Shown here: in pieces, positions 11,153 to 12,262 of the stretch
How positions within the stretch are numbered: position 1 is the stretch's first letter
How the letters are laid out: each line of letters opens with the position of its first letter
DNA from: an uncultured Oscillospiraceae bacterium
GTDB lineage: Bacteria; Bacillota; Clostridia; Oscillospirales; Oscillospiraceae
Reading direction: 5' to 3'
Assembly (NCBI GenBank): GCA_944385765.1
Contig: CALWYL010000001.1
Location: forward strand, 23,556 to 87,555
DNA length: 64,000 bases
The notes under the pieces: model-generated
Seen by the model: only the letters and a program-made list of their open reading frames with translations
Told to the model about the DNA's origin: nothing
The model's database searches: none
Translations under genes and position numbers: made by a program

Positions 11153-12262
11153 CTAGTTCTGAAGCAGTCCGGCCGCGCGCAGGTTGGCGAGCAGCTCGTT
11201 GAACTGGGTGGTGATGTCGCCCGTGCCGGTGGCGTCGGTCACCGGCGCCGCGGCCGTAATTGTGGCGCTCGGCCCGGTGGGGCCGGTGGGGCCTGTTGGG
11301 CCCTCGTTGCCCTGGGCGCCCGCCGCACCCTGCGGCCCGGCGGGGCCGGTGGGACCGGTGGGGCCCTCATTTCCCTGTATTCCGGCGGCGCCCTGCGGGC
11401 CCGTGGGTCCGGTGGGACCGGTCGCCCCGGTACCGGCAGGCCCCGTGGGTCCGGTCGGCCCAGTCGGCCCCTCAGCCCCGGTGGGACCGGTGGCTCCGGT
11501 TCCGGCAGGCCCCGTGGGCCCGGTCGGTCCGGTCGGCCCCTCAGCCCCGGTGGGCCCGGTGGCCCCGGTGCCGGCAGGCCCCGTGGGTCCGGTCGGCCCT
11601 GTCGGCCCCTCAGCCCCGGTGGGCCCGGTAGCTCCGGTTCCGGCAGGCCCCGTGGGTCCGGCCGGCCCTGTCGGCCCCTCAGCCCCGGTGGGCCCGGTGG
11701 CTCCGGTTCCGGCAGGCCCCGTGGGCCCGGTCGGTCCGGTCGGCCCTTCCACACCCGTCGGCCCGGTGGCGCCGATGCCAGTCGGCCCCGTGGGGCCGGT
11801 GGGGCCCGTGGGACCGGTGGCCCCGGCGGGGCCCGTAACGGTCACCTGCTCGAAGTCCGGCGACGTGCCCGGCACGCCGGCGGGGTCGTTCACGTCCACC
11901 TGATAGAGAACGCCGTCATAATATACGAGGTCCCCCTCGGCGTAGCGCGCGGCGGGGCTGAACTGCGTCACCGAGTCTATGCCCGCGCCGGCAGGGCCGG
12001 TGGGTCCGGTGGGCCCCGTGGGGCCGGCAGGTCCAGTAGCTCCGGTCGGCCCGGTCGTCCCGGTTCCGGCGGGCCCGGTGGGACCCGTGGGGCCGGCGGG
12101 CCCCGGCACCAGGCAGCACCTGGGCATGCACGGGCTGGGGCACTGGTCATAGCAGCCGTTGTGGCAGCCCGCCCTGACCACATTCATGCGGCAGTTGTCC
12201 AGGCTATCCACGTTGCTGCCATTGTTGCAGCCGTTATTGCAGCTGTTGTTGCATCTAGCCAT
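11153..12262 (-). CDS. collagen-like triple-helix-repeat protein with a Cys-rich N-terminus
   Basis: 369 aa. 10 Cys in the first 50 aa, then long G-P-T/G-P-A tracts. The internal non-collagen segment is [16 protein letters not shown]. The C-tail is short. GGGAG RBS lies 8 nt upstream. Confidence 0.85.
11413..11780 (-). repeat. tandem 69-nt (23-aa) repeats inside the collagen-like gene
   Basis: About 5.5 near-identical copies encode G(T/I)GATGPTG(A/V)EGPTGP(T/A)GPTGPA. Confidence 0.85.

Follow-up and report, generated by a model that had tools for sequence, protein, structure and literature searches.

Domain architecture of the collagen-like protein

The window analyzed here, a stretch of 64,000 nucleotides (nt) from an uncultured Oscillospiraceae bacterium (contig CALWYL010000001.1, positions 23,556 to 87,555), carries on its minus strand an open reading frame (ORF; 11153..12262) that encodes a collagen-like protein of 369 amino acids (aa) plus stop codon. 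This protein is the subject of the present analysis, together with the glycosyltransferase gene that follows it. An earlier annotation made from the nucleotides and their translations, here called the sequence-only reading, had described the ORF and proposed that its product is a spore-surface filament. The ORF itself was borne out, and in hidden Markov model searches the Pfam Collagen model (PF01391) matched the protein in three stretches with 83.8 bits against a cut-off of 27.2. Translation begins at the ATG at 12262, a choice backed by the ribosome binding site (RBS) GAAGGGAG at 12271-12278 and by comparison with orthologs; the upstream ATG at 12283 is in frame here but was dismissed, since the orthologs have it in another frame. 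The protein consists of five parts, which occur in the order head, first collagen tract, insert, second collagen tract, and tail:

11153..12262, minus strand: coding sequence of the collagen-like protein, 369 aa (ORF call, Pfam)
12107..12262, minus strand: Cys/Asn-rich head, residues 1-52 (sequence parse, tandem repeat)
11984..12106, minus strand: collagen tract 1, residues 53-93 (Pfam, triplet parse)
11834..11983, minus strand: predicted CBM5/12-fold module, residues 94-143 (profile searches, AlphaFold2 [AF2] model)
11267..11833, minus strand: collagen tract 2, residues 144-332 (triplet parse, repeat analysis)
11156..11266, minus strand: C-terminal tail module, residues 333-369 (ortholog conservation, phage-fibre matches)

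The head contains 10 Cys in its first 50 residues (positions 4, 8, 12, 24, 33, 37, 41, 45, 49, and 50), in agreement with the earlier count, and the CC pair sits three residues ahead of the first G-X-Y triplet. The beginning of the head is encoded by a 12-nt tandem repeat of 3.5 copies (12212-12253, minus strand) specifying (C-N-N-x)3, so the number of Cys residues may vary through repeat slippage, as may the collagen tracts. No Pfam or NCBIfam family matched the head, and neither the whole protein nor a 55-aa head matched the exosporium-leader models of NCBIfam. Cys-rich heads with Cys adjoining the start of the collagen were near-universal among 50 complete genes of the family. The nearest precedent for the head is found in the N-terminal connectors of Ena subunits and of L-BclA, which contain CC motifs (PMC12357932), and cooperative cross-linking by disulfides recurs among the outer layers of spores (bioRxiv 10.64898/2026.09.03.749163). 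The head would form an interchain cystine knot, cross-link the filament to Cys-rich coat material, or do both.

The insert and the second G-X-Y tract are both present as described earlier and are somewhat shorter than the approximately 55 and 210 aa given for them, measuring about 50 aa (residues 94-143) and 189 aa, respectively. The collagen register is interrupted by Gly-X-Gly slips, one of which lies in tract 1 and six in tract 2. In the second tract, a 69-nt tandem repeat present in 5.8 copies specifies units of 23 residues, each made up of seven triplets and a G-T, and a slip recurs every 23 residues; the G-X-G slip is kept in the orthologs. Overall, the protein contains 63 Thr residues and 45 G-x-T triplets. 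Only 37 residues follow the collagen, and no BclA_C or C1q domain was matched in the protein by Pfam even at an E value of ≤10. The sequence-only reading had noted a short tail, 37 aa as quoted, in place of a C1q/TNF-like domain, but it missed that this tail is a highly conserved and portable module that phage fibres share.

No signal peptide, transmembrane or hydrophobic segment, LPXTG motif, or other wall anchor was found in the protein by Pfam, NCBIfam, and hydropathy analysis, the highest 15-residue Kyte-Doolittle window reaching 0.58. This is as expected for coat or exosporium proteins, whose assembly takes place in the mother cell, and it argues against an adhesin of the Scl/Lcl type found in streptococci and Legionella, whether secreted or on the vegetative cell surface. 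A carbohydrate-binding knob would suit adhesion, and the NCBIfam models for SclB, Lcl, and SclA do match the protein with E values of 1e-16 to 2e-24; however, these matches score 62 to 86 bits against cut-offs of 325 to 500 and are due solely to the G-X-Y repeats. The type of promoter and the association with SpoIVA, both described below, also point to sporulation, and an adhesin of this type is highly improbable.

The only other Pfam Collagen match in the genome (contig C56, locus L002, 1273-1626) was rejected, since it arises from the antisense strand of a stretch that encodes a Pro/Asp/Glu-rich linker in a large surface protein with SLH domains. Because this sole additional match is an artefact, the genome (1.93 Mb, 97% complete) has a single collagen-like gene.

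A glycosyltransferase gene paired with the collagen-like gene

The gene for a putative glycosyltransferase with tetratricopeptide repeats (TPRs) lies 50 nt downstream of the collagen-like gene on the same strand, and each of the two genes is followed by a terminator-like hairpin:

11118..11145, minus strand: terminator-like GC hairpin and T-run just after the collagen stop codon (terminator scan)
10005..11102, minus strand: GT-A (GT2) plus TPR glycosyltransferase, 365 aa (Pfam GT2 and TPR, phrog_13126)
9944..9972, minus strand: weak terminator-like hairpin after the glycosyltransferase gene (RNA folding; missed by the consensus terminator scan)

The GT2 domain spans residues 6-110 of the enzyme and the TPRs residues 178-349. 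The full length of the enzyme matches phrog_13126 with 366 bits, and the glycosyltransferase family is also present in jumbo phages. Wherever a same-genus locus reaches far enough downstream, the collagen-like gene is followed by a GT2-plus-TPR homolog. In the wider family, 58 of 80 loci contain a glycosyltransferase homolog; in about 48 of the 80 a close ortholog starts right behind the tail, and several others carry a distant homolog upstream. The hairpin between the two genes was found at the same place, with differing sequences, in all eight orthologs examined and is probably a leaky terminator, an arrangement that suggests the production of much structural mRNA and little enzyme mRNA.

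The gene pair resembles BclA3/SgtA of Clostridioides difficile (CD3349/CD3350), in which a Thr-rich collagen-like protein of a sporulating Clostridium, expressed from a sigma-K-type promoter, is likewise encoded beside a GT-A-plus-TPR enzyme of about 360 aa (PMC7157674, PMC3789822), a likeness drawn from published size and architecture. SgtA comprises 358 aa (GT-A, residues 1-260; TPR, residues 262-358), its gene adjoins bclA3, and it adds beta-O-GlcNAc to Thr in the collagen repeats of BclA3 (PMC7157674). The order of the genes differs, the glycosyltransferase gene being downstream here and upstream in C. difficile. By analogy with SgtA, the partner enzyme most likely O-glycosylates Thr in the G-x-T triplets of the collagen-like protein.

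A conserved mother-cell-type promoter

The region upstream of the collagen-like gene contains the following elements:

12341..12348, minus strand: -35-like element TGGCAAAG (by-eye alignment of 16 ortholog upstream regions)
12320..12329, minus strand: putative -10 box GCATAATATG of the sigma-E/K class (ortholog conservation, genome-wide box count)
12293..12315, minus strand: GC-rich stem-loop GGCGGC...GCCGCC, candidate mRNA stabiliser (per-sequence folding of leaders)
12271..12278, minus strand: RBS GAAGGGAG, within the nearly invariant block ACCATGGTGAAGGGAG (ortholog comparison)

The motif GCATAATATGTA occupies 12320-12331 on the minus strand, 58 to 67 nt upstream of the ATG; the sequence-only reading had noticed it, placed it about 50 nt upstream, and rated it as weak evidence. 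Its assignment to the mother-cell type was supported by its conservation among orthologs and by calibration on the genome's own genes, and it proved to be the strongest sequence evidence. Of the 16 upstream regions examined from orthologs, all except one have kept GCATAnnATG here. Among same-genus orthologs it lies 50 to 85 nt upstream of the start, with GTCAC, GTAAC, or GGCAA approximately 16 to 17 nt further upstream, and the -35 elements of the orthologs (GTCACAAG, GTAACAAG, or TGGCAAA) were assigned to the "AC" type known from sigma-K promoters. The pattern AC-N15-17-CATAnnWT was present upstream of 19 out of 50 family genes drawn from many genera, compared with a mean of 0.7 and a maximum of 3 in shuffled sequences and a single instance on the reverse strand.

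Only 46 boxes of the GCATAnnATG type occur in the 1.93-Mb genome, 31 of which precede an ORF with an RBS. The identifiable genes behind the box include dpaA, which depends on sigma-K in Bacillus subtilis, as well as spoIID, cwlD, and a YjcZ-like Cys/Asn-rich ORF of 52 aa. The spoIVA gene of the same genome has an ATA-type -35 element (TCATAATT) of the sigma-E type, whereas dpaA and the collagen-like gene were classed as AC type. In C. difficile, sigma-K promoters have the -10 sequence CATATAAT and an AC-containing -35 element, and the sigma-K regulon includes bclA1-3 and dpaAB (PMC3789822). Judged from its sequence and conservation, the box is most likely a late mother-cell promoter of the sigma-K type.

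Between the box and the RBS, a hairpin of 5 to 8 bp was found at the same place in 10 of 10 ortholog leaders, with differing sequences and z scores of -1.0 to -3.7; RNAalifold recovered no common structure from the leaders aligned with MAFFT. In the 5' leader of the present copy (12263-12320, minus strand), the GC hairpin comes right after the -10 box and may serve mRNA stability or translational control.

Outside the window, contig C30 of the same genome carries a box on the plus strand at approximately 9735, with promoter type GTAAC...GCATAGTATG, and about 127 nt downstream of it a 52-aa ORF (MFCGNNNGGCFWIIIILLLIFVCGGNGNCGNSCTCGCTSNCNCTCDNNCTCC). The encoded protein has no NCBIfam match; it has one hydrophobic segment and a Cys/Asn/Gly-rich end similar in composition to the head of the collagen-like protein, and it is a candidate partner or anchor.

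Distribution of the family and its link to sporulation

Orthologs from the same genus have the same five parts and are 60 to 81% identical; the best named matches are metagenome-assembled genomes of Candidatus Scatomorpha from chicken gut (loci L036 and L103), which makes this genus the probable source of the window. A search of GTDB species genomes with the tail recovered 121 loci, all of them in Clostridia (Oscillospiraceae, Christensenellaceae/Christensenella, and Lachnospiraceae), among them the cultured strains Evtepia gabavorous KLE1738 and Blautia difficilis M29. Isolate DFI.7.65 is a further cultured carrier of a family member. In every one of these loci the tail follows G-X-Y repeats and ends two residues before the stop.

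The source genome encodes SpoIVA. Among the 24 same-genus genomes examined, the tail gene was present in 14 of the 19 with SpoIVA, and one more of these had the N-terminal part only, at a contig end. Of the five genomes without SpoIVA, a single one carried the tail gene (89% complete, 280 contigs), and the other four (97, 99, 89, and 80% complete) lacked both. The joint absence of the gene and SpoIVA is the pattern to be expected of a spore-specific gene and is suggestive. Since the promoter is conserved, the gene is missing together with SpoIVA, and the SgtA-type partner is kept, late mother-cell, spore-linked expression is suggested, and to this extent the proposal of the sequence-only reading gains support; the placement of the filament on the spore itself belongs to the model set out below.

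Four genomes of the genus without a SpoIVA match (G004, G019, G020, and G022), two of which are 97 to 99% complete, suggest that the genus contains asporogenous lineages. One of them, G004, encodes two small ORFs of 89 and 92 aa with a weak tail-like C-terminal motif, possibly small prophage fibre proteins.

A C-terminal tail shared with phage fibres

The tail is the best-conserved part of the protein, being 73 to 93% identical across families of Clostridia. It contains the motif A-A-V-x-D-A-T-x-x-x-D-[IV]-[IV]-x-Q-[FL]-N-x-L-L-x-x-L-R-x-x-G-[LIV]-[LIV], which spans approximately 35 aa, ends 1 to 3 residues from the C terminus, and is present in this copy. No Pfam family covers this phage-fibre-type module. 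A word-index protein search with residues 328-369 returned one protein only and was uninformative, and an exhaustive HMMER search of 1.84 billion representative proteins was used instead. It yielded 1,041 carriers at E ≤ 1e-3 and 91 at E ≤ 1e-10, with the match nearly always lying at the carrier's C-terminal end, and the carriers sampled were collagen-like proteins, phage fibre-like proteins, and large beta-helix tailspike-like proteins. The tail also matched the last 38 residues of the tail fibre/tailspike adaptor in 59 records of Klebsiella Drulisvirus with 53 to 60% identity (tblastn), the protein "tail fiber gp9" of PDB entry 23sh_r (E = 4.7e-12, profile search), and PHROG families annotated as head fibre or virion structural protein. 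A literature search turned up no publication on PDB 23sh, nor any on what the C-terminal peptide of Drulisvirus RBP1 does. The likeness to the Drulisvirus (KP34-like) fibre, of which 23sh gp9 is an example, is one of homologous sequence over the last ~35 residues, with 55 to 60% identity; unlike the present protein, the Drulisvirus fibre has a T7 gp17-like virion anchor and a branching domain, contains no collagen, and serves a phage of a Gram-negative host.

AF2 predicted an amphipathic helix at residues 350-363 with a predicted local distance difference test (pLDDT) score of about 79, and by inspection its hydrophobic residues fall into heptad spacing. The single-sequence model of the whole protein was poor (pLDDT 43); only the C-terminal helix was taken from it, and it was not used for fold searches. 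Because the carriers of the tail are all known or expected trimeric fibres, we infer that the tail is a portable C-terminal cap for trimerisation and registration. The foldon of T4 fibritin and the neck of collectins are short C-terminal elements that trimerise fibrous proteins and set their register; they are functional analogues only, the foldon being a beta-hairpin propeller and the tail being predicted to be helical. Another possibility is that the tail serves as a docking peptide and recruits a separate partner at the tip or base of the filament.

A locus from human faeces (L111; MT838491.1, "UNVERIFIED Bacteriophage sp.") encodes at 2-2162 a protein with YadA/Hep_Hag-like Gly/Ala-rich repeats followed by collagen and then by the same tail, and directly after it lies a 59%-identical GT2-TPR gene. 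This layout indicates that the cassette of collagen, tail, and glycosyltransferase combines with other N-terminal parts.

These matches raise the alternative that the collagen-like protein is a phage-derived tail or head fibre, from a prophage or a phage-like particle, that is unrelated to spores. The tail occurs at the C terminus of Klebsiella Drulisvirus fibres or adaptors and of many tailspike-like proteins and matches PHROG head fibres, the CBM5/12 module is found in phage fibres, and the glycosyltransferase family is represented in phrog_13126 and in jumbo phages. Against a phage fibre, there are no phage genes among the neighbours of the collagen-like gene, its position relative to the glycosyltransferase gene is kept across the genus, and it combines a conserved sporulation mother-cell promoter with absence alongside SpoIVA. 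Scans of IMG/VR with the tail and with a tighter alignment of the insert module likewise found no relatives. On this evidence a phage particle is a very improbable home for the protein.

A tentative and broader view, to which we attach clearly less than even weight, is that the 35- to 40-aa tail is a self-sufficient, horizontally mobile helical "foldon" common to the receptor-binding fibres of phages of Gram-negative and Gram-positive hosts and to the spore hairs of gut Clostridia. Taken together with the CBM5/12 knob and the phage-family glycosyltransferase, the spore filament would then be a mosaic of phage-fibre parts. Such a mosaic, if true, would mean that fibre modules are still being exchanged between phages and the spore surface.

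A CBM5/12-type module between the collagen tracts

The sequence-only reading had compared the insert to carbohydrate-binding module family 5/12 (CBM5/12), the chitin-binding type 3 modules. Among insert modules from relatives, 22 of 26 matched Pfam CBM_5_12, the best with an E value of 5e-7, and a profile of the 26 modules matched the chitin-binding domains of Vibrio chitin deacetylases and of chitinases as well as the tail fibres of Agrobacterium phages 7-7-1 and Milano (E values of 7e-5 to 1e-3). An AF2 model of the insert built on 24 modules reached a pLDDT of 76 overall and more than 90 in the core. This model superposes on the CBM5 of Serratia ChiB with a root mean square deviation of 1.4 Å over 44 columns and on the chitin-binding domain of ChiC with a TM score of 0.70, and almost every one of the best 50 PDB matches was a CBM5/12 domain or a phage-fibre module with this fold. 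The matches of the relatives, the profile search, and the model support a small three-stranded CBM5/12 fold for the insert, which agrees with the resemblance noted earlier as far as the fold and the relatives are concerned; the profile score of this particular copy is considered with the model below.

Conserved aromatic residues of the insert are F103, Y109, Y117, Y122, and F139 in the numbering of the protein, and the in-line knob is a candidate glycan-binding module. The insert is present in about a third to a half of the 50 complete family genes. The combination of such a module with collagen repeats, which had been thought possibly unusual, is in fact common. The CBM5/12 fold is frequent among predicted phage fibres, some of them phage proteins that contain collagen repeats, and modules between collagen tracts are also found in many gut Clostridia and in BclA-C proteins of Bacillus amyloliquefaciens, B. 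velezensis, and B. atrophaeus. The Bacillus proteins (e.g., P0009) contain one to three such modules that are 41 to 46% identical to the insert analyzed here; unlike the present protein, they have an N-terminal domain that is long and helical and end in BclA_C (PF18573, PF26595), and both the Cys-rich head and the tail module are missing from them. A literature search yielded no publication on spore proteins that combine CBM5/12 with collagen.

A proposed glycosylated spore-surface filament

Taken together, these features make it probable, though by no means certain, that the gene encodes a glycosylated, collagen-like spore-surface filament of a gut Clostridium, comparable to BclA3/SgtA, outside the BclA family, and produced late by the mother cell. 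In the proposed scheme, the mother cell would make a trimeric, Thr-rich collagen-like filament late in sporulation from the sigma-K-type promoter and lay it on the outermost layer of the spore. The 37-aa tail would form a short trimeric helical cap that sets the register of the chains, so that the triple helix would be nucleated from the C-terminal end and proceed through the CBM knob, a job done in BclA by the C1q-like domain. The glycosyltransferase would decorate Thr residues, and the CC-containing head would lock the trimer and cross-link the filament to the spore surface. Fully extended, the filament would be roughly 65 to 70 nm long; the CBM5/12 knob, about 12 nm from the head, would offer three glycan-binding surfaces, and the periodic G-X-G slips would give the stalk regular flexible points.

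The BclA proteins of Bacillus anthracis and Bacillus cereus share with this protein collagen repeats of the (GPT)n type. BclA has neighbouring glycosylation genes, is expressed in the mother cell, and forms a trimer nucleated from its C-terminal end. Two features define it, namely an exosporium leader at the N terminus, which docks on ExsFA/BxpB, and a TNF/C1q-like BclA_C domain at the C terminus. The present protein has neither the leader nor BclA_C (PF18573), and because both are missing it is not a member of the BclA family. In comparison with C. difficile BclA3, it likewise lacks the BclA-type N-terminal domain and the C-terminal globular domain and adds the Cys-rich head, the CBM5/12 knob, and the phage-type tail. 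It is better described as belonging to a separate, uncharacterised family with a Cys-rich head, collagen, an optional CBM5/12 knob, a phage-type tail, and a paired SgtA-type glycosyltransferase.

A number of observations weigh against a sigma-K-driven filament displayed on an exposed outer layer. The -35 element of this copy is GGCAAA and contains no AC. The association with SpoIVA is suggestive only, because related genomes are not independent, and none of 16 genomes that have SpoIVA and belong to other families of the same order yielded a member of the tail family, so the tail is not a general requirement of sporulation. The insert of this copy, whose profile match covers positions 2-26 of the 44 in Pfam CBM_5_12 (PF02839), scores 21.7 bits alone and 17.3 bits within the whole protein against a cut-off of 26.2. 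In L111, the YadA-like head would, by analogy with trimeric autotransporters, put the tail rather than the N terminus at the anchored end. The 97%-complete genome yielded no CotY, CotZ, or ExsY; its best match to the Ena domain DUF3992 (PF13157) reached 14.2 bits, below the cut-off, and it had no match to the F-Ena domain DUF4183 (PF13799). Its only SPOCS/DUF3794 protein is SipL-like with a LysM end, and no CsxA-like scaffold was found.

The scaffold searches bear directly on two further explanations. The protein could be the tip fibrillum or the anchor of an Ena-like spore appendage, with the Cys-rich N terminus docked to pilus subunits by disulfides in the manner of the L-BclA connector. The tip fibrillae L-BclA and F-BclA of Bacillus Enas are collagen-like spore-surface fibres without an exosporium leader, and the CC pair and Cys-rich, leaderless N terminus of the present protein resemble both L-BclA, with its CC motif in the N-terminal connector, and a candidate ruffle protein of S-Ena (PMC12357932); the mother-cell promoter and the sporulation link would fit such an appendage equally well. 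On the other side, the fibrillae have C1q-type ends, which the present protein lacks, and they need Ena subunits of the DUF3992 or DUF4183 type, neither of which was detected above its cut-off in the genome. An appendage tip or anchor is accordingly quite unlikely.

The second explanation is that the protein is an internal coat or cross-linking component made by the mother cell and not exposed, its head and stalk acting as glue inside the coat. The same promoter and phyletic evidence applies to it, the Cys-rich composition is like that of coat cross-linkers, and it would agree with the lack of matches to exosporium scaffold genes. A dedicated glycosyltransferase, a carbohydrate-binding knob, and a 55-nm stalk are, however, typical of exposed nap proteins, of which BclA and BclA3 are examples (PMC7157674, PMC12357932), and there appears to be little chance that the protein is buried in the coat. 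A filament exposed on the spore surface remains the preferred interpretation.

Spores carry many strictly anaerobic gut commensals between hosts, and their surface is known in molecular terms for few Bacillus and Clostridium species. The family would provide a candidate major surface glycoprotein for many gut Clostridia, both uncultured and cultured, and has a clear promoter signature and a dedicated glycosyltransferase, spanning more than 100 species-level genomes of the Oscillospiraceae, Christensenellales, and Lachnospiraceae. The knob may mediate adhesion to mucin, chitin, or other cells, and the Cys-rich head may explain covalent attachment. The tail may nucleate collagen triple helices, which would be of interest for the design of recombinant collagens, and its occurrence in both settings ties the biology of the spore surface to the evolution of phage fibres.

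Neighbouring genes

The genes surrounding the collagen-like gene encode Tgt, a DtxR-type repressor, a DUF2325 protein, a nitrilase, and a LysR regulator. The DUF2325 gene (9604-9930, minus strand) follows the glycosyltransferase gene here and in several orthologous loci (L008, L013, and L016), and it has a sigma-70-like promoter of its own at 10027-9999 and a strong terminator at 9579-9543. On the other side, at 12341-12384, the promoter of the collagen-like gene stands back to back with a sigma-70-like promoter of the extended TG type (TGGCCA-17-TATCAT) for the divergent nitrilase-family gene, which probably starts at the ATG at 12408 and not at the GTG at 12375.

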